Source: a virus (Duplodnaviria; Heunggongvirae; Uroviricota; Caudoviricetes). From it: DNA of 39,488 bases. Positions 14,177-34,301 of this stretch are shown one piece after another. Below the pieces are notes generated by a model. That model saw nothing but the letters and a program-made list of their open reading frames with translations, was not told the origin of the DNA and did no database searches. The position numbers and the translations under genes were made by a program. The stretch lies in the IMG/VR virus record IMGVR_UViG_3300025644_000002; one strand, 5' to 3'. How positions within the stretch are numbered: position 1 is the first letter of the stretch; every line of letters begins with the position of its first letter.

Positions 14177-15100
14177 CTACGACAGTGTAAGTTTAGCAAG
14201 CGCTTTGGAGTTACCAAATCCGATGCCAATGTGTTCGTACACGGCCCATGTGATAATATTCTTTTTCTTTTCGATCCAGAATTTAGTATCGTTTAATACT
14301 AAGAATTGTCCTAAGAATTCTTGTGGTGCAAAAGCGTAGATCTTGTTCTGTAACAGTGCAGTTGACCCGTCCTGTTTGAACACTTTATTGGAAACAACTA
14401 CTTTACGTCCGAAGAGCGTATTGTAAGTGAAACCATTAATGTAGATTTCGCTTCCTGCTGAGTCACCAATAGTTGATGCATCATACAAGAATAATCTGTT
14501 ATACATTGTAGAATCCATTAATAGGGTATCGCAACGTAATTCCGCTCCGTCTAAAACGTCAAACAGTTCTTTTAGGCTTGATTTTTCAATCACACCTGTT
14601 TCACTGCCGGATGCTCTATAAGAACCGGTCTTAGCGTTTGCAACGGGCATTAGCGCGTCTACACCTTCTAAGAATTTTTCATCTTCAATGCGTTGTAAAT
14701 CGAGTACTGAGTTCTTCTCAATTATGTCAGTCAGTGGCATTTCATAGGCCAACAGCTCTTCTTCAGTCTTCTGAAAGTCTTCAGAACTAACCTGATACAG
14801 GGGTATCTCGAATCGATCGCCCATTACGTATCTAAGGTTTGGCTGTCCGCGCATGTTCAGTGCCATGGCTTCTGAGTCAGGCTCGATGTCCACGATTTTA
14901 ACTAGGCCGTCGTGATTGACAGATCTTGTCAAGTCAGCTTTAGTTACATATTGTGGATTTATTATTTTTCTTGCAAAAGAAACTTCACGTAGTTTTTGTC
15001 TAACGAAAGCTGATCCTTCCATAGCGACTTTCTCAAGTCCCGCAGGGGAATTAAGCTTTTCTACAAATAACTCATTTAGCGTACTAGCTGAATATTCCAT
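14177..15100 (-). CDS. Major capsid protein (probable HK97 fold, 307 aa)
   Basis: Size, position after protease/scaffold/decoration genes, strong SD (AAGGAGG) and a downstream terminator. The VSFARKII..E-loop-like and RKVVVSN P-domain-like segments fit. Confidence 0.8.
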   Translation of the reverse strand: MEYSASTLNELFVEKLNSPAGLEKVAMEGSAFVRQKLREVSFARKIINPQYVTKADLTRSVNHDGLVKIVDIEPDSEAMALNMRGQPNLRYVMGDRFEIPLYQVSSEDFQKTEEELLAYEMPLTDIIEKNSVLDLQRIEDEKFLEGVDALMPVANAKTGSYRASGSETGVIEKSSLKELFDVLDGAELRCDTLLMDSTMYNRLFLYDASTIGDSAGSEIYINGFTYNTLFGRKVVVSNKVFKQDGSTALLQNKIYAFAPQEFLGQFLVLNDTKFWIEKKKNIITWAVYEHIGIGFGNSKALAKLTLS

Positions 15101-15115
15101 TTTCTTAATCCTCCT

Positions 15116-15568
15116 TTATATGGTTACGTATTCAATTACGTTTGTTGCAGTTATGGCGCCTTGGAATTTAACATCATGACTATACTGCGCTTTAGTACAA
15201 ACCGCTACCTGGTGAGCCGAGCTCCCAGCTGTTGTAGACAGTGTTCCTGTAACAGATAAGTATAGTTTAGACCCAATAGCTGGCGTACCATCATATTGGT
15301 CAGTTCTTGCACGGATTTTACCATATAAAACAGTAATTTTTCCGGTAGCTGCTATGTCAGGGGAGAACCCTGCTAAAGAGCTTGAACGGTTAGATTCAGA
15401 CCAGATTGGAAATCCGAAGTTTCCAGCGGCCGCAACTTTTATACATTGATCAGTTCCGGTAGGACTAACCCATGAGCCTATTACGCCCGATGCTAAAACC
15501 CAGCCTGCCGCGTCTAACGTCAAGTCGATTCTAGTAAGGTTATTTAAGGTAGAAAGAATTTCTAACAT
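15116..15568 (-). CDS. Putative capsid decoration/cement protein
   Basis: 150 aa, Gly/Ala/Thr-rich beta type, immediately upstream of the capsid gene, GGAGG SD. Confidence 0.55.
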   Translation of the reverse strand: MLEILSTLNNLTRIDLTLDAAGWVLASGVIGSWVSPTGTDQCIKVAAAGNFGFPIWSESNRSSSLAGFSPDIAATGKITVLYGKIRARTDQYDGTPAIGSKLYLSVTGTLSTTAGSSAHQVAVCTKAQYSHDVKFQGAITATNVIEYVTI

Positions 15569-15591
15569 TCTATTATATCCTCCGATTATCT

Positions 15592-15912
15592 TTAAAGATC
15601 TTCGACAAGCATTCTTGTCAAAGGATCCATGGTCCCGTCATCCTGAAGTCGGTCACTAACTTCCCCTAGAGACGCGACAGCGCCTCCGAAGCTAGCAGCT
15701 TTTTCAATAACTTCAAGTTCCGAGTCGTCCTTTTGGACGAATTTCTTGATTGTGGACTCCAAATTTTCTGCAGCTACATGTCCGGCTTTAAACATCTGAA
15801 ATACTATTGCATACGCGTTTTGCACATGCGCCAGATCAGATGCTAATTTCTCATTATCATCTCTAAGAGATTCAACAAGAGCCATAGTTTCGCTAATTAA
15901 CTTGGGATCCAT
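15592..15912 (-). CDS. Head-morphogenesis hypothetical protein
   Basis: Intact acidic ORF in the head operon, carries EKAA. Confidence 0.6.
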   Translation of the reverse strand: MDPKLISETMALVESLRDDNEKLASDLAHVQNAYAIVFQMFKAGHVAAENLESTIKKFVQKDDSELEVIEKAASFGGAVASLGEVSDRLQDDGTMDPLTRMLVEDL

Positions 15913-15920
15913 TTTTTTTG

Positions 15921-16226
15921 TTAGTCTTTAGCTAACTCAGCTTTAATAGCTTGTCCTATAATTGTACCCATGTCTTCCAATTCAGCTACTTTTTCAAGCA
16001 TTGTTTCTTGTTCCACATCGTAATCAATCATCATTCCAGCTAATTTTATTACGTCATTTTCGTCGTAATCTTCACCATATTCTGCAGCTAATAAGCCTTC
16101 AGCGCCCTCAGCGTACTTACGTAAAGTTTCTTGACCCTCGTCAACTACTTCTTCAGTAACTTCTTCGGCCACTTTTTCAGCTTCAGTTTCCTGAATAGCT
16201 TTATATGTGTCTAATAGTGTTCCCAT
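15921..16226 (-). CDS. Acidic scaffold-like protein
   Basis: Intact ORF with EKVAE and KYAE motifs. Confidence 0.55.
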   Translation of the reverse strand: MGTLLDTYKAIQETEAEKVAEEVTEEVVDEGQETLRKYAEGAEGLLAAEYGEDYDENDVIKLAGMMIDYDVEQETMLEKVAELEDMGTIIGQAIKAELAKD

Positions 16227-16228
16227 CT

Positions 16229-16816
16229 TTAGTTATCTCCTAAATACTGTGAGGTTAATGCTCCGATAATTCTATCCGCAGCAGTTGTTTTTTCAGCTTC
16301 TTTAACTTCTTCTTTCATTTCTTCAGCTACTTCTTCAGTCTTTTCAGCTTCTTTAACTTCTTCTTTCACTTCTTCTTTAACTACTTCAGCTATTTCTTCA
16401 GCTACTTCTTCAGACGCCTGTTTCTGCAATTCCTTCCAGAAACCTTGAGCCATAATTCTACCCGCATCTTCATATTTTTCAGCTTCTTTCTGTAAGTCTT
16501 CTTCAGCTACTTCTTCAGCTACTTCTTCAGTCTTTTCAGCTTCTTTAACTTCTTCTTTCACTTCTTCAGCTACTTCTTCAGTCTTTTCTGCTTCTTTAAC
16601 TTCTTCTTTAACTACTTCAGCTACTTCTTCAGTCTTTTCAGCTTCTTTAACTTCTTCTTTCACTTCTTCAGCTACTTCTTCAGTCTTTTCTGCTTCTTTA
16701 ACTTCTTCTTTAACTTCCGTAGAACCTTCAAGCATTGCGTCATTAAAAGATTCTTCAGCTGTTTTTTCGTGTTCAGCTTTTAGTTTTGCTAAAATATTGT
16801 CTATATTAAGTGACAT
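16229..16816 (-). CDS. Acidic scaffold-like protein with 17-aa tandem repeats (EEVKEEVKEAEKTEEVA)
   Basis: Glu-rich, about 4-5 copies of a 51-bp unit, between protease and capsid genes. Confidence 0.6.
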   Translation of the reverse strand: MSLNIDNILAKLKAEHEKTAEESFNDAMLEGSTEVKEEVKEAEKTEEVAEEVKEEVKEAEKTEEVAEVVKEEVKEAEKTEEVAEEVKEEVKEAEKTEEVAEEVAEEDLQKEAEKYEDAGRIMAQGFWKELQKQASEEVAEEIAEVVKEEVKEEVKEAEKTEEVAEEMKEEVKEAEKTTAADRIIGALTSQYLGDN

Positions 16817-16817
16817 T

Positions 16818-18539
16818 TTATTGCCCTCCTATGATATCTTTATACAATAAATCCAAATCTTCCGGACTTATTTCTGATAATAACTCTGCTGTTTTAAAAA
16901 ACTTAGGTCTCTTAATAGCTGTTGCTACAGTGGCCCCCACTAGTCCTGCGAGTAATGGATGTTTTCTGGCAAAGTTCTCTGTTGGTTTTAAAGGTACACC
17001 TTTTCTAGCTTTATTCTCCTGTTTACCTGCGTAATAGTAGGCGGTTGGTACTGTTATTAAAGAAGACATTAGGAATTTGTCCACAGCTCCTAAAGAGGCT
17101 TCTTTATTAAATGCTACACTTTGGCTGGCTAAAGAACCGGCCGTTCCCGCTCCCACTAATACTGGAAGTAACCAAGGATATTTAACTACAAACGATCTAA
17201 ATTTATTAATCGATGGATTATTAAATACCTTCGCATACCCGTAATATAAGCTTCCTAGAAGTCCTAATGGAACTACTGGATTTCTATGTGCTGAAACAGG
17301 TGGTTCCTCTTTCTGCGTAAATAAGAAACGTTTTATTCCGCTACGTTCTCTAGAAACATTACTTGGATAGGTTGTTGCTTGAGACTCATATCCTACTTTA
17401 TGTATTCCTCTTGCTAATACTCATTGTTTAGTAAGAGACATATCTGGGACTGACTTCAAAAGCACCCCTGCGATCTTGCTATTAAAATTATCAAAAGTTA
17501 CATTGGGTAATTCTGTAGGGACTGTGTCCTTATCTACAATAAAACAAACTCCATTTTCAGCCCATTTATCTGCCGCTTCTTTTTGTCCAAAAACGTACGC
17601 AGCCAATTTTTGAAAATCTTCTCTAACTGGTGCAATTCGTAAAGCCATCATTGTAGAAAGTATCTCGTCGATATTATACTTAGAAAGCTTTTCGATTGTT
17701 TCATCTGAAAGTCTTTTCTGAGTATGTAATAGGATATTTTTTGGATCTTGGTCCGCAATCTCTATTTTAACGTCTACTTTTTTTCTAATTTCTGCTCTTG
17801 GTTCAAACCCGGCAGCTTTAAAAAGCTGTTTTGTTTCTTTTGGTAATTCCTCTGCAATTTTTATAACACGAGGTCTACTAGATGATTTTGCTTCAAGAAG
17901 CCTAATAAAACTAGCAGTCCTGTCGGCAGGGATAGTTACAACACTGATATCAAAAAATTTCGGCATTGTATTTATTGCGTAAACTTTTCTACCGTCGGAT
18001 AAAATATTATTCATACGATACTTTAAGTGGTCACAATATTGAGCTCTCGTTTGAGCTTTGTTTCCGCAAATGGAGCATATGTCAAAAGGAACTTTAGTTC
18101 CCATAGAACAAAATGGTAATTCTCCTTTTTGCATTTTTGTAATAACGTCTGCACCTTTTTTAGAATCTAATTCTAATATTAATTCTACTCGATGCATTGT
18201 AGGATTATAATGTGAAAATAAAACCTTACCTAACGATTTTCTTGGATCCTTATTTACATGGTGTCTGTACACATGACCTAAAGCTTCAAATGTTTTATGA
18301 TATTGTTTTAAGGCCTTTTCTGGAAAATGATCACCATTTCTATTAGAGCTATAAAATTCTCCAGCAGATAAAGCATTTACTAAAGCATATACTTTGTCAA
18401 CACGCTTTTTTAAAGAATTAATATAATCTACTAACTCTTCTGAATACGACGCAGTTTTCTCCATGGTTCCCTTACCGATAAGGGTAAACACCTCAGAGTT
18501 ATTGTCTCCGTAAAAGTATTCTGCGCGTTTTTCTATCAT
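16818..18539 (-). CDS. Putative prohead (maturation) protease with Cys-rich insertion and C-terminal extension (573 aa, 1 TGA)
   Basis: NGDHFPEKAL, HRVELI, SMGTKVPFDICSICG..YCDHL and FFDISVVTIPAD resemble HK97-type prohead proteases. TGA at 17421 joins in frame to ORF 16818-17156. Confidence 0.65.
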
Positions 18540-18546
18540 TTAATTT

Positions 18547-19110
18547 TTATGTAATGTCGCTATCGAAAGGTGAATTATATTTTGTAGGAGATGTTTGTGC
18601 TTTCCCAAATTCTGCTAAGCCGTCAAATGCTCCTTGCACTAACTCTTTTGATACCATATCTGATAATCCAGGACCCTTTCCGGGTTTCATAGGAGCTCTA
18701 CCAACACCTACTAATGTAGAAAACGTATCAGGAGGGGGTCCTCCAAAGGAATCATAATGACCCCTTTCAATAGACTGCCTAATATAGGCTCCAGAAGCTA
18801 ACGGATCTCTAGCCATGTGCGGTGCAAAATGGTATAATGATTCCCAGTATAATGAAAGTATATTAGGGTCTACCTTATGTAACTTAGGATGCACTGCCAT
18901 CATTTTCTTAAATGCTTTTTTAGCCACAAACTTTTTATTTTTAGATTTAAATACTTCCGTAACTGTATCTACAACAGCGTCAAGTGCTAAAGTAGCAATC
19001 ATCATTCCAGCACCAGCTTTAAAATACTGTATTATTTTTGCCGGATCCTTTTCCCCGATTGCGCCTCTTATCAAACCACTAAATACTTGTGAACCTTTTA
19101 TCTTAGGCAT
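18547..19110 (-). CDS. Hypothetical head-module protein
   Basis: Intact 187-aa ORF with TAATG coupling to the upstream gene. Confidence 0.6.
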   Translation of the reverse strand: MPKIKGSQVFSGLIRGAIGEKDPAKIIQYFKAGAGMMIATLALDAVVDTVTEVFKSKNKKFVAKKAFKKMMAVHPKLHKVDPNILSLYWESLYHFAPHMARDPLASGAYIRQSIERGHYDSFGGPPPDTFSTLVGVGRAPMKPGKGPGLSDMVSKELVQGAFDGLAEFGKAQTSPTKYNSPFDSDIT

Positions 19111-20072
19111 TATCTTCTCCCCATTTTATGCTGAACTAATTTCTTTTGTAATATCAAACCTTGTTCAAACTTACCTTTATTTTTGCCAGACTTATGTACC
19201 ATTGCCCCCACAGCTAATGCTGCAGTAGTTTTGGGATGATTTATAATTGTTTTTCCAATACCTTTAATTACTTTTAAGGCCGCTGATTTTTCTTGTAATA
19301 GTCCACTAATATTAGGAAGAGAGGCTTCTTTAGTAAATTTAGTATAATCCTCTGTTTCCTGTTCTAAATTTTTATCTGCTTGGCAGATTTCATCAGTATA
19401 TGTTTCCAATCTTTCAGCGATTTTATAAATATCTGAGTTAGGGTTAGGGGTTAAGGAATTGTCACCTTCTGTATCTAATTTAACAAAAGGCATATTTGGT
19501 TGTAGTTCCTCTCTTATTGAGGAAATAAAATGTTCATGGGTTTGTGGTGCAGCGACTTTTATAATTTCAGAAACGTTTCCATAAGAGCATCCGCCTAATA
19601 CTGCTTGTTTTATTAGAGACTTTAACTGTCCATATGTAGTATCCCAACTCGTTACATGCTCTGCAATTATATTACTTTCTCTTTGTATACTACCTAAATG
19701 ACGTTGGGCCATTTTCCGTAATTCTGATTCCGTTGCCTCACGTTTCTCAGCGCTTGCTACTTTTTGCATAGAAAAAATAGAAGGCTCATCGTCATAATCG
19801 CTTAAATCCACAGCTACTTTGATAGATTTCATATTCTTTTTAGCTTCCTTTGAATCCGCAACTTCAAAACGTATATATTTATCCGAAGCTGTTTTCATCA
19901 TGTTAAGATACGTGGCCGTATTAGCAAATTCTGCAACTCGGTCAATTTGGTATGTAGTAAATCCCTGGGCTTCAGCTGTTTTAGCTAAACCTTCTGTAAG
20001 AGGGATAGAGTTTTTGATATACTTTTCGGAAATAGACTTACCGAAAATTTCTAAGTCGGATGCTGTGAACAT
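19110..20072 (-). CDS. Hypothetical head-module protein (320 aa)
   Basis: Intact ORF with several KxA motifs (KTAE, KTAS, KVAS, EKSA). Confidence 0.65.
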   Translation of the reverse strand: MFTASDLEIFGKSISEKYIKNSIPLTEGLAKTAEAQGFTTYQIDRVAEFANTATYLNMMKTASDKYIRFEVADSKEAKKNMKSIKVAVDLSDYDDEPSIFSMQKVASAEKREATESELRKMAQRHLGSIQRESNIIAEHVTSWDTTYGQLKSLIKQAVLGGCSYGNVSEIIKVAAPQTHEHFISSIREELQPNMPFVKLDTEGDNSLTPNPNSDIYKIAERLETYTDEICQADKNLEQETEDYTKFTKEASLPNISGLLQEKSAALKVIKGIGKTIINHPKTTAALAVGAMVHKSGKNKGKFEQGLILQKKLVQHKMGRR

Positions 20073-20077
20073 AACTA

Positions 20078-20106
20078 AATATGGCTCCTTATCCTTTAAT
20101 TGTCAA
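20078..20106 (-). promoter_or_regulatory. Sigma70-type promoter TTGACA-N17-CATATT
   Basis: Read directly; ATG 20072 is 5 nt after the -10 box. An AAGGAG also lies inside the spacer. Confidence 0.55.
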
Positions 20107-20124
20107 GTAATTTTTTATTTTTTT

Positions 20125-21663
20125 TTATTTTACTGCCCCAAACATTAGTTCGCAAGCTATAGTTCCAAAAATACAAGCATGGGCAAAATCATCTGGACCT
20201 ATATTAATATATTTCATAAATCCTCGCTCTTCGTCATAGTCAATTTGTATATTCATAATGTCTTCTTTAAAAGAATCCATTGATACTGTATGTGGAAATT
20301 CTATTCGTAAATTTTTAATGTTTTCAAAGAATTCAGTCATTACTTTAGTTCTATTTAAAGTGTAGGCGGGCATCTTGTCATTCCATTGAATTTTATTTTT
20401 CTGGGTACCGGAATGTTGAAATGCTACTACTTTTTCATAACCTATTCTAGCTCTGAGTTCTGAATTTGGCGCTTCGCCCATTCCATAATCTGAAGCTACA
20501 CTAACGCAATTTCACTTAGCCATTATTTTAGGAATTTCTGGAACGATAAAACTATAATCGGCTTCTTTTCCAATAAACTTTTTAGCATAAACTACTCGTA
20601 ATTTATTAGAGCGAAGTTGCATTACTACTGCTACGGTATAAGATTTTTCTGAATTAACTGGGCCATAATCGATAGCTAATACACTAGGATAATTACGCTG
20701 TTCCTCGTTAGGATCCTCTTCCATTAACGGGCCGGTACTGGCTCTATCTATTTCAAATTCTGTAACAGGTGATACTCCAGCATCATATTCTAACGCTAAT
20801 ACTTCATTGTGAAAAAAAGCTTTAGACCAATGCCTTTGTTTATCTAATATATCTTCCTGCCAATTAACCCAGGGTGCTTTTGCAAAGTGTAAAGCGCAAA
20901 CTCTATACCCTTCCATAGCTGTAGGATTTTTTAAAGAATATGTAGAAACTCATTCTCCTCCTACACTAATATCTAAAGGTCTACCACACTTCTTACATAT
21001 AACTCCGAAATCCCCAATGTTTTCTTCATCTAAAATATTTCAATGATTACAACTTTGGCACTTAACTATATATTCGCACATAGTAGATTTATGCCATAAA
21101 TCAGCTAAAGTTCCTCTAGAACGTTTTGGGGTACCAGAATATACTATCCATTTATAATCAGAGTGTGTCATAGTTTCCTGTACCACAGGAATAATTTCAC
21201 TAAGCATGTCCTGACACTCATCGAAAATATTCATATCCGCAGAAAATCCACGTAATTTATCAGCAGAAAGCAGCGCATATCTTATATGCATTAAAGATCC
21301 ATTAGCTAATTCTTTATGGTGAACATTATCTACTAGAGAAGTATTCATATAGTGATCTTTCATAAAAGGGCTACCTTCTAAAAAAGGTTTCACCCTATCA
21401 TGACTGAATATCTTAGCTTGAGTAATCGTAGGAGCTACGTATAAAGTTTTAAAGAAAGGAATCATACCAGAATTAGCTGTTACCATTCCCGCCATTGTAG
21501 TGGATTTAGCCGTCTGTCTGCTAAATTGCATAACTTTCTTTTTAGGCGAAGTATCCCACACACGTCGCATATGGGGGTAATCATCTAAAGAGAAGGGGGC
21601 GCCATTTAGCCAGAAAAATGATTCTGCAAATTCGCTACGTGATATTGCTATCTTTTGAGACAT
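20125..21663 (-). CDS. terL: Terminase large subunit (512 aa, 3 TGA=Trp)
   Basis: Walker A SRQTAKST, Walker B IFDECQD, SGTP, CxxC..CxxC insert, nuclease AIDYG and SDYGMG. Three track ORFs join via TGA at 21040, 20950 and 20512 (CNH*NILD, GE*VST, AK*NC). Confidence 0.9.
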
Positions 21664-24464: not shown

Positions 24465-25067
24465 CTACTTGTATCGTTTAGCTCAATTCTTCGCCATCTC
24501 TATGCGATTTGCTGCTGCACTATTTTTTTCTTTCTGTAGGAGTATAGTATTTTTCTTATCTGAAATTTTAGCTTTACTTATACTATTCTTCAGTTTATAA
24601 GCCTTAAGATTTTTTGGTATAAACTTTGCTGTTTTCTTAAGTAAAAAAGGTTGTGACGCTTTAACTGCTGCCTTATTCTGTAATTTAATAGTGGTAATAT
24701 CTGCCTTTTGTGCCTTTGTAGCTATATTTCCTGGAAGAAGTCTTTTATTTTGAGTAGCCGCAGTTACCCCTGAAAATTGTAATTGAGATTTAGTTAGGCC
24801 TTCAGCAGTTTTTATACTATTCATAAGTTCAAGATCTTGTGTTCGGTCAAATCTTCCAGCTTTTCTTTTTCGTAGATTAGTATTATTTTTGTGAATTAGA
24901 GAGTCAGCCTTTAATTCTAGTCGTGTTGGGTTTCTGTATTTCTGCCTTTTAGGATCAAGTACGTTTCACAAATTTTTAGTATTTTGTAATTTGGACTTTG
25001 TTAGAGCCTTGTTTATATGTCTTGTAGAGATTGCTAGTTTCTCAAATACTATTGTTGCTTTATCCAT
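24465..25067 (-). CDS. Basic DKA-leader protein (200 aa, 2 TGA)
   Basis: Starts MDKATIVFEKLA; TAATG-coupled to the upstream gene. Confidence 0.7.
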
Positions 25068-25675
25068 TAGGCTAATCCCACTTCATCACCATTCTTAATA
25101 GTTTTCATCATGCCTTTTACATGTCTAAGTTTCCCTTCTTGTTTTTTTCTATATAATTTATTTCCTGCAAGCTCTGTCTTCTTATCAAGTATGTTTGTTT
25201 TTGTAGCAGAACGGTCTCATACTCTACCAAGTCTTAGAATTTTTTCAGTATTCTTAGTAGTATGGTTATCGTAGTTTCTTCAATTTTTTTCTGATTGTCT
25301 AAATGCTAAGCTACGAGAATTGTCAACACTCTTATATACTCTATTAAGGCGTTTTAACCCTCTTGATCCTGCATACTTACGAAGTATTGCTGCGCCTGTA
25401 AGAGCCCCCGCCACCACCACTCCAACAGCGTTTAATACTGCTCTTCGCCTATTCTTTTTGAACTGCTGCTTACTAACTTTAGGATATGTATGGGTCGATC
25501 TATATTGCTTATCATATGCGTGTAGCTTTTTACCATGAATTTTTTTGTATTTTTCATAGCCAGCATTATAGTCGTCGTTCCATTGTTTAACAGTCATACC
25601 TTCAGGAATCAGTCCTAAACTTTCTACGGATCTACCCGCTAATTTTTCAAATACTATTGTTGCTTTATCTTTCAT
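25067..25675 (-). CDS. Basic DKA-leader protein with a hydrophobic Gly/Ala helix (202 aa, 2 TGA)
   Basis: Starts MKDKATIVFEKLA; read-through ends exactly at a TAATG junction. Confidence 0.7.
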
Positions 25676-25679
25676 ATTT

Positions 25680-26408
25680 TTATCCATATACCTTTTTAAG
25701 TAAGTTACTATCTGTTATTTTATTTTTTTTGTACTTAGACATGCGAACTGTTCATTTATCATATGTAGACTTTTCTGAAGAGGGTCTATTAAAAAAATCA
25801 TGTTTAGCCTGTCCTGATAAGGTTTTCATATGCTTTCTAGCTCTATACTTTTTTTTACTTCCCTTACTAAATATCTTGCCAAGTTCAGTGGATCTGTTTT
25901 TTGCTATATCTGGAGATAAAAAATCAATTACTTTATTTCCAGCAACATTTGAAGAGTGAAGATCTTGCACGGTTTTACCAATTATTTTTCTAGAATCTTT
26001 ACGTGCACTTCTTATAAGTTTTACGTGCTCGTCAAATGTTTTTTCACTCGGAACACTATATTGTTGGTATGTTATTTTCTTTTTTTTATCGGCTCTGTGA
26101 AACTTAGCAAAATGTGGTGATTTATTCAGTTTTTTTGAAACTTGTATTTTAGTATTAAAGGCTTTACGGCTAAACATTGGACTAGTCGTGTCATGAATTT
26201 TGGCCACTTCTACTCCATGTTTCGGAGAGGTTCTTAGTTGTACGAGCGCCTCATTGCCTCGACCAGCCTTTCTTAAAGTTCTTGGTTTCAACTGTAAGCT
26301 CTGTGAAATACGTTTTACGTTGTTAAGCGACAATGTTCCACGATTAAAGGCCCTTACTAACGCTGTTTTAGCTATTTTTTCAAATATGTAAGTTGCTTTA
26401 TCTTTCAT
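25680..26408 (-). CDS. DKA-leader protein with protein-kinase-like fold (242 aa, 1 TGA)
   Basis: AGRGNEALV (Gly loop), VAK, DLHSSN and VIDF motifs. Confidence 0.65.
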
Positions 26409-27142
26409 TAATTTGTCTCCAAAATTTTAGATTTTTTTGTAGTCCCTGGAACAAGCATCTTGCGCGCTCTTAATCCAGAATTATATTGAGCTCCTGCTGC
26501 TACCCCTCCTATAGCTCCTGCCGCTAATATTCCAGAAGATATTAAAGTTATACCTCGGTTTAACCCGTGTCTTACTGATTTCAGTATCTTTGGATTAGCT
26601 CTTGCGCTAGTAAATGTTTCCTTAATTACATCCTTAAAGTTAGTTTTTGATTTTATAGTATCCCCTCGTTTATTTTTTCATAATACCTTGCCTTTTTCTG
26701 AAGGACCTTTTGTTTTCTCTAAATCCTTTATAGACAGGTTTTTTAATGTATCCAGAATAACAGAAAAATCTTTTTTAGATACTTTAGATTTAGTTTTTAA
26801 TGCTTTATTAATTTTACTACGCGCATGAAGAGACTGCCCTAATACTTTATATGGTTTAAAAGCTTCAGAAGCTACTGCATGGGCTTTAGCCTTTATGCCG
26901 GGTCCGGCCTGTCTAGAGGCGCTTGGCCCTTTTACCATAGTAGACAACACTGCTGGAGTAATTACAGAGCTCCCTATAAAACCTCCTGCAACCGCTGTAC
27001 CCATATGCCTTTTATGATTTTCTTTATTATTAATAGCGCTTTCAAATGTCCAACGTCCGGTAGGCTCTACTCCTGCGAAAAAATCTCTGGTAGCTGAAGA
27101 GTCTTTTCCTAATTTTTCAAATATATACTGTGCTTTATCCAT
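26408..27142 (-). CDS. DKA-leader protein with Gly/Ala-rich hydrophobic segments (244 aa, 1 TGA)
   Basis: Starts MDKAQYIFEKLG; read-through at 26678 ends at a TAATG junction. Confidence 0.7.
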
Positions 27143-28425
27143 TATATTATCTTATTCTTTTTTGCAGTGGTGAACGCTTTAAAAGCAGTTGTAGCTAAAT
27201 TAGCTATCCCAGATCTAGTTCCCCCTACTGCTTGTTGCCTATAAGTTTTTAACGCCTTAACTCTAAGAGCGTCGTCTGCAGGTACTCCAGCGTTATCCCA
27301 AGCATCGATTTCCATTTTAAATCTATTTGTTTTTTCAGGCTTGCCCACAAGATTATGAAAAACATCTGTTGCTTTTCCTCTTGAATGTTTTCCTAATTTT
27401 TTTGGAGAAGTAAGACCCTTATTCTTAAAATCCGCGATATGTCCTAGTTCGTGATCTATAATTTTTTGAGAAGACCCTTTTGATCCAATTATAACTGCGG
27501 GGCCGTGTTTACCCATAGTAGCTGCCGCGTTAGGTTGCTTTAATATAATTTTATTCATTTGATGAGATATAAAACCTCCTGGTCCTCTACCTACATTTTT
27601 CTTAACTCATTTTTTAGAACTGGCTTTATCGTGAATAACGCTTACACTGTCTCCCATTTTAGAGTTTACATACCCGGGAACGTCCTTCATAAATGGTTGT
27701 TTTGCCATTTCCTTTTGAGCGGCCTTACCCGCCTTCACCTGTGAATGTACGGTTTTAAGATGGTAACCTTTCGCTCCTACGGCTAACCCTGTAGCCACGT
27801 TATCTACTTTACTTCAATTAATTTTCTTATCTATAGCTTTTACGGTAGCGGTAGCTTTTGCCACTCCTTCATTATTTTTTATATTTGTTACTCCGCTCCT
27901 GATTTTAGCTTTTAAATCCTGAACTTCTGCATATTTCTTAAATATTAATGTTACTTTATCTTGCATTGCTAATTTCTCCGTGTTTATTCCTAAATCTATT
28001 AAGTTCTTTCTAGCTGCTGGGCTTTGAGTTCTCACCCAGGTGCCGAAACTAGGAAAATCCTTTGTATTAGCTTGGTTAGCTTTTGAGGTCGCATACCAAT
28101 CAGTTACTGCTTCTAATTTATTTTTTCTTTCAGAGACCAAACCAAGTTTGTGGGCATGATGTGGGTTTCGTTTGTAGTGAAGCGCTGCTGCTTCTCTAAA
28201 TTTTCTAGTTACTTCTGGATCCTTCGTACCAGTAATACCTTTAGGGCCCTGCCAATAGGCTACATAAGGCTTCCACTCGCTTGGGCGGAACTTAGAGAGG
28301 TCATGAGCTAAAAGCGTCCCGTATGGGGCTCCTATAGTCCTGCCGGGCCTAATCATAAAGGCCTTATGCCTAAGAAGACGTTTACCATATTGATAGTGGT
28401 CTGATATAGAGGGTTTATTTTGCAC
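27142..28425 (-). CDS. Fusion of a DUF5662/HD-like domain and a HExxH metallopeptidase-like domain (427 aa, 2 TGA)
   Basis: AHDLSKF..E..HYKRNPHH..EAVTDW, then internal MQDKVTLIFKKYA, then DHELGH..EIDAW. Three track ORFs join in frame via TGA at 27814 and 27607. Confidence 0.6.
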
Positions 28426-28429
28426 TAGT

Positions 28430-28882
28430 TTACCAATTCATCTCTAATTCTGGATATTTGTCTTTTATTTTCTTTTTTAAACTAGCATCAGTAAAATTAA
28501 TTAGTTTTTCACCAAACCTTTTTTGAATGGGCATGTCTTTTGTATAATATGTTGACATATGCATATCACCGCTTTCTCCCCAATCCGGATTAGCTCTGTG
28601 AAATATAAGTTGATGGTTTTTAGTTTGTACCACCCCTTTATCTCCAATATTCATTTTAGTTTTGACTATATCTATTTCTGGTAATACTTTCTCTATTATA
28701 TCTTTTCCTTCATTCCTATTAGACGTAACTGACTTCATTCGTGTTACGCGGTCCAATTTTGGTTTAAGGCGGGTATGGCTCTTTACCTGGCTAATAACGT
28801 CATCCCAACTTTGTAACGAGGGTACTCTCGCCATTCCAAACTTATAAAAATATTTATTATATACTTGCGCAGCTTTATCCAT
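28430..28882 (-). CDS. DKA-leader hypothetical protein
   Basis: Starts MDKAAQVYNKY. Confidence 0.65.
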   Translation of the reverse strand: MDKAAQVYNKYFYKFGMARVPSLQSWDDVISQVKSHTRLKPKLDRVTRMKSVTSNRNEGKDIIEKVLPEIDIVKTKMNIGDKGVVQTKNHQLIFHRANPDWGESGDMHMSTYYTKDMPIQKRFGEKLINFTDASLKKKIKDKYPELEMNW

Positions 28883-30275
28883 CACTTCCTACTTCCTTTA
28901 ATACTTTAGTAAAATCATTTACAAGATTTTGTTTATTTTTTGATAGCAATTCTAGATACTCATCAGTTCCCGCATGTTGTCTACGTAAGAATCTAGTTTT
29001 ACGTGGCTTATTAATATATGTTTGAATCGTTATATTTCGATTTTGTTTTTTTAAATGTTCATGAGACTTGAATCTATTTACTCTACCTTTTACTTGTTTT
29101 AGAGTAGGTTCATTCCAATGAGGCTCTAATATTTGAAGAAGCCTTGTTCCTTTTAAATCAAGCCCTTCTGCTCCCGCTCCAGATATAAGTAAGTGTTTAA
29201 TCTTGCCAGAATTATATTTCTTTACTACATCAGCTTTTTCTAGGTCAGTCTGTCTTCCTGTAAAGGTGCCAAAAGGTATCTTAGTTCTCTTAAGTCTTTT
29301 GGCCATTGGGTCCACTCCGTGACCTAAGTATGTAGAGTAAGTTACTCCACGATATTTTTTATTAGCTTTATGCCTCTTAGAAATTTCTGACATCGCTCTA
29401 TTTAGTTTAGGAGCATCGGCCTCTGTAGCGCTTAAATTGTATTTGCCCGGACGATTAGATACTTGGCGTGCCGCTCCTAAGAATGCATTCATTCGAGATG
29501 ATTCTGTTTTAGAAGGAGCTATTCCATGCCTAATTTTATACTTTAAATCAGGATCTTCTTTCATAACCATTTTATAAGCTGCTTGTTGTTTTTTAGACAT
29601 TGTAGTTTCTATACGCTCATTTATAACTGAAGGATAATTTTTATCTTTAGTTGGGGCATGATAATCTACTTTGCCTCGTAGAGCTTTTCTAAGAACTCCT
29701 AAATTTTTCCCACGTTTTACCGTTCCAGGCTTAATACCCTTAAATACTCGTGCAAAAAATCCAGGTTTTTGTTTAGTCTCTTGAATAAACGCCTGGTTAA
29801 ATCTTTTTTTATCTCTACCTATATTAATATTTAAACCCCGTAAAAGCGGTATTAATTCTGCAGGTTCATTTCTAATAGGAGTTCCTGATAGAAGCAGGGT
29901 TTTCTTACCCTTTATTTTATCTGGATAGTGTGAACGTTGGGACTCTGTTCTACCCATTCTGTGGGCTTCATCGAATACAACTACGTCTTTTGAAACATTT
30001 TTTGTTGGAGGTTTATTATAAGAATAATAAGAACCTTCCCCTTTTATTTTATGCTTAAGCCTCTCTTTAGGAAAATTATGTTTTAAAGCTGCAGGGCCTA
30101 TAACTGTTACAGGTTTCTTAAACTTTTCACCTGCACGTAATGCCGTATAGGTTTTACCAGAACCTAAGCCGTGATATAACAACATTTGATCAGTCTTCTC
30201 AAGCTTCTTTAATACTCTAGCTTGGTGGGGCTGATCGGCAGCATACTTATTAAATACGTGTAGGGCTTTATCCAT
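28875..30275 (-). CDS. SF2 (SNF2/DEAH-like) helicase/ATPase with DKA leader
   Basis: GLGSGKT, DEAH, SGTP, GAEGLDL, EPHWN and QVKGRVNR motifs; starts MDKALHVFNKYA. Confidence 0.85.
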   Translation of the reverse strand: MDKALHVFNKYAADQPHQARVLKKLEKTDQMLLYHGLGSGKTYTALRAGEKFKKPVTVIGPAALKHNFPKERLKHKIKGEGSYYSYNKPPTKNVSKDVVVFDEAHRMGRTESQRSHYPDKIKGKKTLLLSGTPIRNEPAELIPLLRGLNINIGRDKKRFNQAFIQETKQKPGFFARVFKGIKPGTVKRGKNLGVLRKALRGKVDYHAPTKDKNYPSVINERIETTMSKKQQAAYKMVMKEDPDLKYKIRHGIAPSKTESSRMNAFLGAARQVSNRPGKYNLSATEADAPKLNRAMSEISKRHKANKKYRGVTYSTYLGHGVDPMAKRLKRTKIPFGTFTGRQTDLEKADVVKKYNSGKIKHLLISGAGAEGLDLKGTRLLQILEPHWNEPTLKQVKGRVNRFKSHEHLKKQNRNITIQTYINKPRKTRFLRRQHAGTDEYLELLSKNKQNLVNDFTKVLKEVGSDG

Positions 30276-30276
30276 T

Positions 30277-30999
30277 TTATTTCTTACCGTATATTGCTTT
30301 AGGTATATTAGAATTTCGGGTCATACCGCTCTCTAATAACTTACTTCCAAAATCTATAGCTTGGTACTTAATACCTTCTATAGCTGCAGCTGGTTTTTTC
30401 TTTAAAGACAGAGCCTTCCACACTTCACTCTTAACCGCTTTTTTAAATCCCTCAGTCTGTTTCCCGACAGTGGTTGTTTGTAGAGCTTTGCGCCCCCTTC
30501 TACCTGCGGGAAGGAAGTCAATTATTTTTCCACCCTGAATGTTTCCTGGGTTTCTAACTACGTCGGCCATAGGTACACCTCTCAGTGTAGCTTGTGCCTT
30601 TGTTAGAAGAGTTTGTTTTATAGAGCTCCCAATTCCGGCAGTTCCTGGACTATACTCGTGGAAAGTGATGGGTCGTTTAGGATCTTTTCCATAATACTTG
30701 GCAAAATTGCCTTTGCCTGACATTGTTTTAAAAGTACGAACTTTTTCTTTTAATACCTCTTTACTCGAAAGCCCTCCCTTAGGGTCATAGAGTTTAGCAA
30801 CTTGAAGTTGGTGTTTTGCGGAAGTCCTTAACTGTGCCAACCCTTCAACTCCCTGGCCCAAATCTTTTAAATATCTAGACTTAAGTCCTAAAGTTTGAGT
30901 AGCTTTTCCCGCTGCTTCTGCAGAGATCTTTCTAGCCTTAACCGCTCTTATCATCGCAGTTGAAGCTCATTTTTCAAATATGTATTGTGCTTTATTCAT
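30277..30999 (-). CDS. DKA-leader kinase-like protein, paralog of 25680-26408 (240 aa, 1 TGA)
   Basis: MNKAQYIFEK*AS; LGQGVEG, VAK, DVVRNPGN and KIIDF motifs. Confidence 0.65.
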
Positions 31000-31541
31000 T
31001 ATGCTGTTCCTTTTATAAATGTGTGATATCTGTTAATTGCGCCTTTTACTGTAGGAGCTGTATTAAAGGCTCGATGAGTATTAGTTACATATATAGTTCT
31101 ACCATCAGGTTGTACCGATTTCCATACAGCCGGAGTTGCTTGGCGTTTGCCATCTCTACCAAAATGAAAATTCCAAACTGCTTTGCTTTTCATCACTAAC
31201 GCGCGCTCTTCTGGAGTTAGAGGTTTTTTATGTTTTTGAAGTTTCTTAAACTTGATTTTACAAGAGGTATATTTAGCATACTTCTCAAATACCTGAGCTA
31301 CCTTCTTAAAAGAGGTTAAGATCCCATTATAACCTTCCCTAGTAACGTTAGGGAGGGGTTTCCTAGTAAACACTTCTCTACTCATAAATGGTATAGATTT
31401 ATTAGCTATTAAGGCTCTATATTTAGCTTTGTTCTTTCGTCCCTGCAAAAAGATATTGTCTCATCCAGCTTTTTGTTGAATGAGGGTTGGATCGAATCCT
31501 CGATCTATCTTAAATTTTGGTACTGGAAAGAATTTAGGCAT
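30999..31541 (-). CDS. Basic hypothetical protein with internal KVAQVFEKYA motif (180 aa, 1 TGA)
   Basis: Track ORF extends to ATG 31541 through one TGA. Confidence 0.6.
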
Positions 31542-31756
31542 TGACTATTTTTGAGAAAATGTATTCTGCTTTTTTGTATAACTGAGCATAATCTTTATAT
31601 TTCTTTCCAGGATTTGCTTTTTTTTCATTTAGCAAAATTTGCAATTGCGTTGGGTCCGTAGAGACCTCTCATTACATTAAAACCCTTTTTACCCTCAATC
31701 ATGTGAGTCAGATGTTTTACTTCGGTAACTAAGTCTTTTACTGCTTGTTTTTTCAT
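31534..31756 (-). CDS. Small protein with an apparent frameshift at an A8 run
   Basis: Frame 1 stops at 31595. The shifted frame continues KKANPGKKYKDYAQLYKKAEYIFSKIVNA, which contains the family motif. Confidence 0.45.
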
Positions 31757-31774
31757 TTAATTATTTCCCACTCT

Positions 31775-33814
31775 TTAAGATGCGTAGTCTATATCATTAA
31801 TTAATCTAGACGTTGTTAAAGCCTCTGGTACATATTTTTTTAGCTGTTTACTGGTAAGATCTTGACCGCCTCTTAATCCTTTAACTTTCAAATATTTTCG
31901 CTGAGCTTTATCGCTCCCTACGGCAGCTGCTATCATTGTTCCAAACGCTGCACCCGCTACAGCTCCTACTGCAACATTTTTTCCTAAACCTTTCATTTTT
32001 CTTAATACTGAAAGCGGTTCTGGGTTTACAGCTCAATAATTACTAGGAGGATTTTTACCTAACCATTTTGTACCTGATCAAGCTCCTAATGCTGCTCCGA
32101 CCCCCGTTGTTTTAGGTATTGTGGCAGTCCTATATTGTTTACTTCTTTCCTTTTTTGAGCTCGCCGAATACTCTGGAGCGTTTTCTTTATTCCATTTGCC
32201 AGAAGGACTTTCCTGTAAGGCTCTAGCATGCGCTCGCGCTTGTAGCTCTTCTCTTATTCTAGACAACTCTAGATCATGTGCTAAATCTATATAAGGATAC
32301 TTTTTACCTAATTTACTCATTACAGCTTCTGCTTTTTTATTTAAAGACATAGCTCCGCCTACTAAGGTAGCTGCTGCTGTAGGAGTTCCTACTACTGTTC
32401 CTACTACTTTAGCTGTTTCGATTTTAATCTCTTTTTCTACATTTTTTAATAGTTCCGTATACTTAGGATGATCCTTATGAAGTTTAGAGGTCACAGTTTT
32501 TAATTTATTTATATAATCTGCTTTACTTTGTTTAAGGCCCTTTAGACGGCTACCTTTTACTAGTTCCAAATATCTAGCAGATACCGATCCAGTTTTACTA
32601 GCGCGCCCTATCCCTATTCCTGCGAGAGTTGTTCCTGCGCCAAACCCTAGAAGTTTAGCATTTAAACTTATTCCTTTCTTTGCCGCAGGTTGCTCAGTTT
32701 TTGCCGGAGCAGTTGAAGTTGTAGCCTTTGTAGATTTTGTAGATTTCGAAGTAGTTGAAGCTGCTGACGCTTTCGAAGATTTCGAAGTATTCGCAGCGGT
32801 TCCTTTACCTCCAGAAGAGGTCCATCGGGCATCTACGGGTGCCAGACTTTTATTTTTCACTACTCTTTTTGAAGTTCCTTTAACAACCGCATCTGAGGTT
32901 GCTTTCGCTTCCTGGGCAATTGTTATGGCCTTTAATTTTAATGCCTTCGCATTAATTGCAACTTTTAAAAATACATATTCCGCTTTTTTATCTATAACTG
33001 CGTCTGCTAATACAGCTGCTGCGCCTGTACCCGCCGCACCTCGTGTAGCGTATACTTTTACAATTTCTTTACCAGCCTCGTTAGCGTCAAGCTCTTTCCC
33101 GCTCTTTTTAGCTGCATCTATCTTAGACTTCATCTTATTGCCAGAAAATAACTCTTTAGTTCTTTTTAATACCTTCTGCCCTGTCTCAGCCACGCTTGCA
33201 GCAGTCGGTCCTGCAGTTTTATTAAATAATAGTTCTGCTTTAGAAAACTCTCCTTGTTTCTTCATATTTGTACTCCTATGGTATCCTATGCCAGAACCTA
33301 TAGCACTTCCTGCTAATAACGCGGCTGCTGGTACTTTGAATGTTTTAAATTTTGTTAAGGTGCCTTTTATTTTATTAGTAAATAATTGAAAAGCTTTTGA
33401 TGGTAAATCTGGTTGTTTTATAAAATTTTTAGCTAACTGCTTTTGATTTTTTAAATAGGCCTTTGTAACATCGCTTATGTCGTTGAATGTTTTTCCTTTT
33501 AAATCTTCTATGTTTTTTTTATTACTTGCAAAAAATTGTCTAGTAAACAGTGCCGCCCCAGGTAAAGACCCTAACATAGACCCAGTAAGGGCTGCTTGAG
33601 CTGCTTGCACCTTTCTCCCTTCCGGAGCTAATGACGCCGCTGCTGCACTTTGTAAGGGCGCGCCAGGCACCAACGTAGAAATAGCACTTGATGCTCCTAC
33701 TAAAGAGGCGTTCATAAGTTTTCTAAATTTAGTACGCCTTTTTGGTTGTGGAATCGACGGGACTGCTGAGGCTCCTAACCCTACTACAGTTCCTAATGGT
33801 GATTGAATATCCAT
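31775..33814 (-). CDS. Large basic Gly/Ala-rich protein with three internal KAE..F.K motifs, polyprotein/ejection-protein-like (679 aa, 2 TGA)
   Basis: SKAELLFNKTA, KKAEYVFLKVA and KKAEAVMSKLG. Joins ORF 31775-31996 in frame via TGA. Confidence 0.65.
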
Positions 33815-33822
33815 TTTAACTC

Positions 33823-34167
33823 CTATTTATATTTTTTGTCTAGATAGTCTTTAGTAACTCCGTAGGTACCAAATCCTATAGCTAACGTTGGAATGTTACG
33901 TAACAATTTTAATCCTAAACCTTTATACAAAGATTTAAAAGCCTTTAATTTACCTATTGGTTTCGTAAGTTTAGGAGGTTTATTAAAGTCAACATTTTGA
34001 GAGGGAGGAGCCGTCTGACGACGAACTTGTAGGGTATCTAAGGGGTGAAGCAATAAACTGGTAACAGTCCCAGATAATGCTCCTGGGGCTAAATCTAATA
34101 ATAGACGATTAGGTTTACGTTTATTACGCTCAGCGTATTTCATAAACACGTGTTGTGCTTTATCCAT
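33823..34167 (-). CDS. Single-repeat mitochondrial-carrier (Solcar/SLC25)-like membrane protein with DKA leader (114 aa)
   Basis: GALSGTVTSLLLHPLDTLQVRRQ and SLYKGLGLKLLRNIPTLAIGFGTYGVTKDYL match both halves of one carrier repeat; starts MDKAQHVFMKYA. Confidence 0.75.
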   Translation of the reverse strand: MDKAQHVFMKYAERNKRKPNRLLLDLAPGALSGTVTSLLLHPLDTLQVRRQTAPPSQNVDFNKPPKLTKPIGKLKAFKSLYKGLGLKLLRNIPTLAIGFGTYGVTKDYLDKKYK

Positions 34168-34207
34168 GTATTTTATGTCCTTAAAAATAATTATCAATTG
34201 ATATCTC

Positions 34208-34236
34208 AATATAAGTGTTACGAATTTATTTGTAAA
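34208..34236 (-). promoter_or_regulatory. Sigma70-type promoter TTTACA-N17-TATATT heading the late module
   Basis: Read directly; same TATATT-xAGAT-A context as the promoter at 14094. Confidence 0.6.
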
Positions 34237-34263
34237 GGTTTTTTTTATAATTTATGCAATAAA

Positions 34264-34273
34264 GGTATAAGAA
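34264..34273 (+). promoter_or_regulatory. GGTATAAGAA motif, copy 1 of 5 (putative early promoter)
   Basis: Intergenic, upstream of a plus-strand gene. Confidence 0.6.
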
Positions 34274-34301
34274 CTATGTAATAACTAAGGAGATCTATAT
34301 T

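Follow-up and report, generated by a model that had tools for sequence, protein, structure and literature searches.

An uncultured marine bacteriophage encodes what is almost certainly a true homologue of the mitochondrial carriers, one that consists of a single carrier repeat. The protein, P0001, has 114 residues, and its gene lies on the minus strand at positions 33823-34167 of the window, as the whole stretch of 39,488 nucleotides that was analysed is called here. Against Pfam, P0001 holds one Mito_carr repeat (PF00153; E 1.2e-14; 54.3 bits with a cut-off of 22.3), which covers profile positions 5-95 of 96. The reading of its function that we prefer, with a probability of about one half, is that P0001 is a head-packaged, ejected membrane protein that would form a gate-less pore or conduit.

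A stand-alone carrier repeat in a phage genome

A phmmer search over 1.8 billion representatives returned 3867 proteins that match P0001, and nearly all of these are three-repeat carriers at about 30% identity. The profile of the phage family to which P0001 belongs matches the solved UCP2, UCP1 and AAC at E-values of 3e-18 to 1e-17, and P0001 aligns with SLC25 proteins (bovine ADP/ATP carrier, 1okc; UCP1, 8g8w; UCP2, 2lck) over one full repeat. The look-alikes of P0001 in the ESM Atlas merely repeat the Mito_carr label. A first-pass annotation of the window, made from its letters alone, had proposed that a phage of bacterial type encodes one repeat of the Solcar/Mito_carr kind and had named a HMMER comparison with PF00153 as a means of checking it. 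That comparison gave the significant match above and, together with the thousands of carrier matches, confirms the proposal.

The tripartite structure of carriers, with three tandem repeats and six transmembrane helices per chain, is not found in P0001: it has one repeat in 114 residues, in contrast to three in about 300 residues in SLC25 proteins. The source phage and a 99%-complete relative of 210 kb (IMGVR_UViG_3300038361_000164) each contain one Mito_carr match per genome, and none of the ORFs neighbouring P0001 has a Mito_carr match in Pfam. Thus, P0001 is a stand-alone repeat and not one part of a split three-repeat gene.

The gene starts with ATG at 34167 and stops with TAA at 33825-33823. 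All minus-strand genes of the window are continuous once TGA is read as tryptophan. The P0001 ORF contains no in-frame TGA and is bounded by stops on both sides under either code, and therefore the recoding alters neither of its ends. A divergent intergenic region of 134 bp (34168-34301) separates the plus-strand genes, which use the standard code, from the minus-strand block in which TGA encodes tryptophan, and a gap of 9 nt lies between the stop of P0001 and the start of the next minus-strand gene. This layout fits the earlier description of P0001 as the first gene of the late operon, since the gene opens the recoded block. A scan for sigma-70 promoters and terminators around the gene gave matches that are no commoner than in shuffled sequence.

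The identical P0001 protein is recorded on 51 contigs, the longest of which is 211 kb. Sequence words from the stretch occur in marine runs of six studies (2012-2019), and contigs from four of the runs (three studies and one run without a named study) are 100% identical across the P0001 gene. The sole difference among the contigs is at position 31779, in one RNA-run contig and inside the neighbouring gene, while the carrier gene is invariant. This recurrence shows that P0001 is not an assembly chimera, and for practical purposes it rules out the chimeric eukaryotic insertion that the first-pass annotation had considered as an objection to its own proposal. Many short Mito_carr matches in metagenomes are indeed first exons of fungal carriers, and one could suppose that such an exon was misassembled into a phage contig, or that P0001 is a recent capture that is now decaying. 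However, besides the contig evidence, the gene has the GC content of the phage, its repeat is joined in frame to a phage-specific tag, orthologues that are 37-56% identical occupy the equivalent position in related phages, and the gene has a clean stop and is tightly coupled to the next one. We give an artefact of either kind practically no weight.

Contigs from two metatranscriptome libraries span the entire P0001 gene at 100% identity. As evidence of expression this is weak, because such libraries may be contaminated with DNA. One RNA-library contig that spans the gene (window 33710-34187) ends 20 nt upstream of the ATG; as a clue to the start this is only a hint, since contigs cannot define a transcript start.

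The window belongs to a 163,945-bp IMG/VR virus record that is estimated to be 77% complete. The source is an uncultured marine tailed bacteriophage of roughly 210 kb with HK97-type head genes. Beyond the window, its genome also encodes a class II ribonucleotide reductase, a DNA polymerase of family A, an AEP primase and an enzyme of the CCA-adding type. Among cultured phages, the closest by TerL is Vibrio phage D181, and at only 28% identity it does not allow the host to be deduced.

Profile searches recovered about 22 stand-alone single-repeat proteins of 97-132 residues, which form three clades and are 30-56% identical to P0001, and in addition one longer form of 284 residues that is extended at its N-terminus; short matches that are first exons of fungal carriers were left out of the family. 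All members with enough flanking DNA are located on uncultured phage contigs, and a search for single-repeat homologues in metagenomic phages, as the first-pass annotation had advised, was thus productive. No match was obtained when three family members were compared by tblastn with 50,697 GenBank phage records, and the family profile found no relative in a set of one genome per GTDB species. One member, P0158, is labelled at NCBI as a 'Rhodobacteraceae MAG'; it was considered as evidence for a host and rejected, since its contig is phage-like and has the same synteny. Our search of the literature found no description of phage-encoded or single-repeat carriers.

Conserved packing residues and incomplete gates

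P0001 was at first described as a 12-residue leader followed directly by the carrier repeat. The leader is real, but a basic linker of 16 residues lies between it and the repeat. The motifs that had been pointed out were all found, namely P42-L-D44-T-L-Q47-V-R49-R-Q51 in the first helix and L80-Y-K-G83 followed by R90..P93..A96..Y102-G-V-T-K106 in the second half. The first helix, of the odd-numbered type, begins near residue 21 and extends to residue 52 (34012-34107, minus strand), according to the low-confidence AF2 model and an alignment with the odd helices of UCP and AAC; its GxxxG motif is formed by G29 and G33. Residues 53-74 (33946-34011, minus strand) make up a proline- and lysine-rich loop that replaces the matrix helix. 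Residues 75-113 (33829-33945, minus strand) comprise the L-Y-K-G motif and a helix of the even-numbered type, in which K87 joins the residues named above.

P0001 and SLC25 proteins have in common the GxxxG motif, a kinked odd helix with P-x-D-x-x-x-x-R-x-Q, the [YW][KR]G motif and an even helix with R/K..P..A..Y...K, as well as strong basicity and a basic residue at the substrate contact position. R90 of P0001 aligns with the arginine of 'VIRYFPTQA' and that of 'VLRG' in AAC, which are substrate contact points.

The AF2 monomer consists of two long helices, residues 21-52 and 75-113, at a low confidence (pLDDT 60.5). Its comparison with the PDB by Foldseek gave no match at E <=0.001, which means little for a model with a pLDDT of about 60. 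The prediction of a homotrimer from three copies of residues 18-114, with an alignment of 20 rows, scored 0.02 and gives no answer either way. The 19-residue Kyte-Doolittle maximum is 1.54 in helix 1 and 0.63 in helix 2, the latter being weakly hydrophobic. P0001 has a net charge of +15 over its 114 residues and a pI of 10.3.

Across the 22 members, G29 and G33 of the GxxxG motif, P42, D44, T45, Q51, L80, Y81, G83, P93 and A96 are invariant, and R49, K87, K/R90, Y102 and K106 are nearly so; substrate contact position 90 is basic (R or K) in every member. Unlike SLC25 proteins, P0001 has neither the K/R of the matrix network nor the D/E of the cytoplasmic one, and the matrix helix is variable or absent in the family. 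In the matrix salt-bridge motif, P-x-[DE]-x-x-[KR], the final basic residue is replaced throughout: position 47 is never K or R, being T in 17 members, Q in 4 and S in 1. The cytoplasmic salt-bridge motif, [YF]-[DE]-x-x-[KR], is similarly incomplete, with an acidic residue at position 103 in a single member (D) and G in 18, A or T in 3. From the matrix-helix motif, [DE]G....[YWF][KR]G, the family keeps L-Y-K-G, with Y81 and G83 invariant, and P0001 lacks the EG part. The matrix loop is 10-40 residues long across the family, and in clade B the loop and helix are nearly absent.

Selection maintains the skeleton of helix packing that is typical of a carrier repeat, but both alternating-access gates miss one partner. 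Since the gate charges are absent family-wide, classical alternating-access transport by the P0001 family must be considered doubtful. The homotrimeric nucleotide or solute carrier that the first-pass annotation had envisaged is left unsupported, given Q, T or S at position 47 in 22 of 22 members and G, A or T at position 103 in 21 of 22.

A shared tag in a block of basic late genes

The first 12 residues of P0001, MDKAQHVFMKYA (34132-34167, minus strand), match the HMM of a shared N-terminal tag (28.3 bits, E 8e-08), which is a candidate capsid-targeting signal. The consensus of the tag is M(K)DKAxx(V/I)FxK(L/I/Y)(A/G), and it is found at the N-termini of P0001 and 8 further proteins of the same block. 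Matches to the tag HMM with E <0.01 are confined to 25067-34167 of the window, where they comprise nine gene starts and internal sites in two more genes; the tag is also found internally and near the C-termini of some block proteins. That the leader is shared among phage genes had been noticed at the outset, and the tag HMM bears this out.

The block comprises 11 consecutive late genes (24465-34167, minus strand), nine of which have the N-terminal tag. All of its products are basic, with pI values of 9.6-10.7 and net charges from +9 to +69. Most of the structural and scaffold proteins encoded next to the block are acidic, with charges down to -40 among those that are scaffold-like. A short terminal sequence is therefore common to otherwise unrelated proteins of one phage, on nine N-termini within 9.7 kb. 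Codons differ between the copies of the tag and the DNA upstream of them is unconserved, which places the conservation of the tag at the protein level; the alternative of a DNA-level element was rejected on the same grounds. No fixed protease cleavage motif was seen after the tag among the copies.

The proteins that bear the tag are diverse. A SNF2-family helicase of 466 residues (28875-30275, minus strand) starts with the tag MDKALHVFNKYA and has a net charge of +57. Tagged orthologues of this helicase are present in two relatives of the source phage, L010 and L018, and the protein may be packaged and injected. A DUF5662 protein in the block has an internal copy of the tag. The gene that follows that of P0001 (31775-33814, minus strand) encodes P0268, a protein of 679 residues under code 4 with a net charge of +69 and two to three internal tags, among them DKKAEYVFLKVA and NKKAEAVMSKLG. 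P0268 contains at least five hydrophobic segments rich in Gly and Ala and has no family match in Pfam or PHROG; from its sequence, it looks like a candidate polyprotein or membrane-active ejection protein. A further copy of the tag, at window position 30999 on the minus strand, reads MNKAQYIFEK-TGA-AST. It has TGA at a position that is occupied by Y, L or I in the other copies, which fits the reading of TGA as tryptophan and provides an internal control for the late genes.

Both L010 and L018 have the same tag array, with the carrier gene first, and the same pattern of basic proteins. In the 99%-complete relative, tags are found only in the equivalent block and in one other ORF; a strong copy of the tag, MDKAEYVFEKLAERAAHE (27.6 bits), is located at about 79,463 on the plus strand, far from the tagged block. 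The genes neighbouring the carrier repeat in clades B and C mostly lack the tag, so that an array of putative cargo does not accompany the whole family.

Tag-like sequences were also noted in two individual members of the family. P0061 (284 aa; contig L020, 2653-3507), from clade B, has an N-terminal extension of 165 residues rich in Ser, Thr and Lys with an internal tag-like motif (SAIEKLAINYQ), which shows that the tag can occupy a domain boundary. P0169 (111 aa, on a contig of <1 kb) is a single repeat with the canonical matrix motif E-G-x-x-x-x-Y-K-G and a tag-like N-terminus (FFDELQKIAKK), and its position in the phage family is basal.

The tagged block ends just upstream of the genes for bS21, TerL, the protease, the scaffold-like proteins and the major head protein. 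Based on Pfam and PHROGs, the head module extends over 14177-21663 on the minus strand and includes TerL (20125-21663), the prohead protease (16818-18539), acidic scaffold-like proteins (15592-16816) and the major head protein (14177-15100). In clades B and C, the carrier-repeat gene is translationally coupled within a head region that encodes, in this order, an acidic protein resembling a scaffold, a small transmembrane protein, an actin-like protein, the carrier repeat, a protein of 161-168 residues and a portal-like protein (phrog_16240), so that the carrier-repeat gene is two genes upstream of the portal-like gene. In contig L012, the protein between the two has 162 residues. In L035, the contig of P0158, the carrier repeat is followed by small ORFs and a 480-residue protein and not by the portal-like arrangement.

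The actin-fold gene upstream of the carrier repeat in the head region of clades B and C encodes 341-342 residues and matches Volactin in Pfam (PF25216), with a faint match to MreB. It is located at 5949-6977 in L012, 6973-8001 in L014, 6435-7463 in L016 and 2269-3294 in L035; it lies directly upstream of the carrier repeat in L012, L014 and L035, and two small ORFs intervene in L016. Close to the head region, phages of clades B and C also have genes for a reverse transcriptase (RVT_1) and for vWA/MoxR (L016, 15941-16375; L035, 10274-11188).

Proposed role, alternatives and origin

The T4 internal proteins IPI, IPII and IPIII carry a capsid-targeting sequence and are thought to be loaded into the prohead core and ejected with the DNA (PMC3012670). 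The tagged block resembles them in that unrelated, mostly basic proteins share a short N-terminal sequence and are encoded with late genes; the likeness of the tags is one of pattern. Unlike in T4, the tag also occurs internally and near C-termini, and the cargo includes a membrane-type hairpin and large enzymes. Since diverse basic proteins that share a short terminal tag beside head genes make up the pattern of the T4 internal proteins, P0001 may be read as head-packaged cargo, and we consider the odds of its being carried in the virion to be slightly better than even. Delivery from the virion had already been suggested by the first-pass annotation, and the array of tags, the very basic products of the block and its place beside the head genes are strong circumstantial evidence for it.

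In the role that we propose, the 12-residue tag would act like the capsid-targeting sequence of T4 internal proteins, and P0001 would be loaded into the prohead alongside other tagged cargo, such as the helicase, an HD-domain protein and others. Its charge of +15 would keep it among the packaged DNA, and at infection it would be ejected into the host. There, the two amphipathic helices might insert into the cytoplasmic membrane as a homo-oligomer, of three subunits if the carrier barrel is copied; that P0001 assembles into a carrier-like oligomer in a membrane is a tentative suggestion, to which we give rather less than an even chance. P0268, with its Gly/Ala-rich hydrophobic segments and internal tags, would be a plausible partner. 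The partners of the gate salt bridges are lost, whereas the packing residues and a conserved ring of lysines (K87, K/R90) are kept, and so the oligomer would be expected to be a gate-less, anion-attracting pore or conduit rather than an alternating-access exchanger. Such a pore might help DNA or cargo to enter, or it might be a leak for ions or nucleotides at an early stage of infection.

We know of no ejection protein with a carrier fold. Giant phages pack large masses of ejection proteins, and in P22 the ejection proteins gp7, gp16 and gp20 leave the head and build a conduit across the cell envelope (PMC7411985, PMC8402733). The role proposed for P0001 together with P0268 would be like that of the P22 proteins and the E proteins of SPN3US, although P0001 has no sequence relationship to any of them.

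Other roles were weighed against this one. Three copies of P0001 could assemble, in the cytoplasmic membrane of the host, into a carrier of the classical SLC25 type, which would exchange nucleotides or solutes by alternating access and thereby serve phage metabolism. The homology to carriers is true across the whole repeat, the single copy per genome implies a homo-oligomer if there is a barrel, and both the basic contact position (R/K90 in 22 of 22) and the GxxxG and small-residue packing motifs are conserved, all of which would suit a carrier. However, in practically every member each of the two gate networks misses a partner, the matrix loop and helix range over 10-40 residues and are nearly gone in clade B, and the gene is tagged and lies among head-associated late genes, away from the genes of nucleotide metabolism (RNR, polymerase). 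We therefore regard a classical carrier as unlikely.

The same charge and tag could belong to a soluble, DNA-associated internal head protein, in which the carrier hairpin would be reused as a basic helix that condenses DNA or acts as a scaffold, without a role in the membrane. P0001 is as basic as such a protein might be (+15 in 114 residues, pI 10.3) and comes from a uniformly basic tagged block beside strongly acidic scaffold-like proteins; the weak hydrophobicity of helix 2 also makes a purely soluble, DNA-bound role possible. Nevertheless, what is conserved is the membrane-helix packing of carriers and the proline kink, and not basic residues on the surface, helix 1 has a hydrophobicity near the transmembrane level, and strong basicity is shared by eukaryotic mitochondrial carriers, which are themselves very basic proteins. 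A soluble role is on balance improbable. Late expression together with the head genes would be compatible, too, with a membrane protein of lysis or assembly, such as a holin-like protein or a head-assembly anchor, that acts inside the infected cell and is not packaged. P0001 is small, has two helices and is expressed with late genes. Three to four genes upstream of the carrier repeat, phages of clades B and C encode a small transmembrane protein and have an Amidase_2 gene. Yet no lysin is found near the carrier gene in the source phage, L010 or L018, and lysis would not explain why soluble enzymes, for example the SNF2 helicase, bear the tag; this role has a low probability. The head-packaged, ejected membrane protein thus remains the reading that we prefer.

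Mitochondrial carriers are viewed as a eukaryotic invention that was made by tripling a two-helix unit, and to our knowledge no free-standing carrier unit has been described. Legionella LncP and Mimivirus VMC1 are three-repeat carriers that were acquired from eukaryotes and act in mitochondria. P0001 is comparable to these as a Mito_carr protein whose gene lies outside the nuclear genomes of eukaryotes and which would be used in a host or delivered to it, but it has one repeat and its host is bacterial. P0001 further differs from SLC25 proteins in general in that a bacteriophage encodes it, its N-terminus carries a phage tag, and its gene stands among late genes associated with the head.

According to a 2026 preprint on the origins of SLC25 (bioRxiv 10.64898/2026.03.31.715626), no prokaryotic homologues were known; the preprint mentions neither phage nor single-repeat proteins. 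CysZ/YihY are proposed there as bacterial relatives of AAC, on a structural similarity with circular permutation. Like CysZ/YihY, the phage family is relevant to the questions of whether SLC25 arose in prokaryotes and whether its founding repeat had two helices; unlike them, it has a direct match to the Mito_carr sequence profile, at E 1e-14.

When placed in one tree with 90 repeats from eukaryotes, the members of the phage family group as a single clan (SH-aLRT 74), which does not fall within repeat 1, 2 or 3; the resolution of this tree is poor. The mean scores of the family against carrier repeats 1, 2 and 3 are 34.7, 33.6 and 40.2 bits, with overlapping spreads. With about 100 alignment columns, the tree cannot separate an ancestral lineage from an old capture. 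It is conceivable, though at long odds, that the phage family is a surviving two-helix carrier unit from before the triplication, in the form of a homotrimeric gate-less barrel that would be injected into bacterial membranes. If this were true, the SLC25 fold would be of viral or prokaryotic origin and would have been an oligomeric pore at first, and not a eukaryotic invention.

A natural one-repeat family makes the triplication hypothesis directly testable, as to whether the repeat forms a trimeric barrel and how it functions without gates. The finding thus bears both on the evolution of carriers and on the delivery of cargo by phages. If P0001 is delivered from the virion, a protein with a carrier fold would represent a new kind of ejection protein, and the tag shared by about ten basic proteins, which include a helicase and a membrane-type hairpin, points to programmable cargo-loading in abundant marine jumbo phages.
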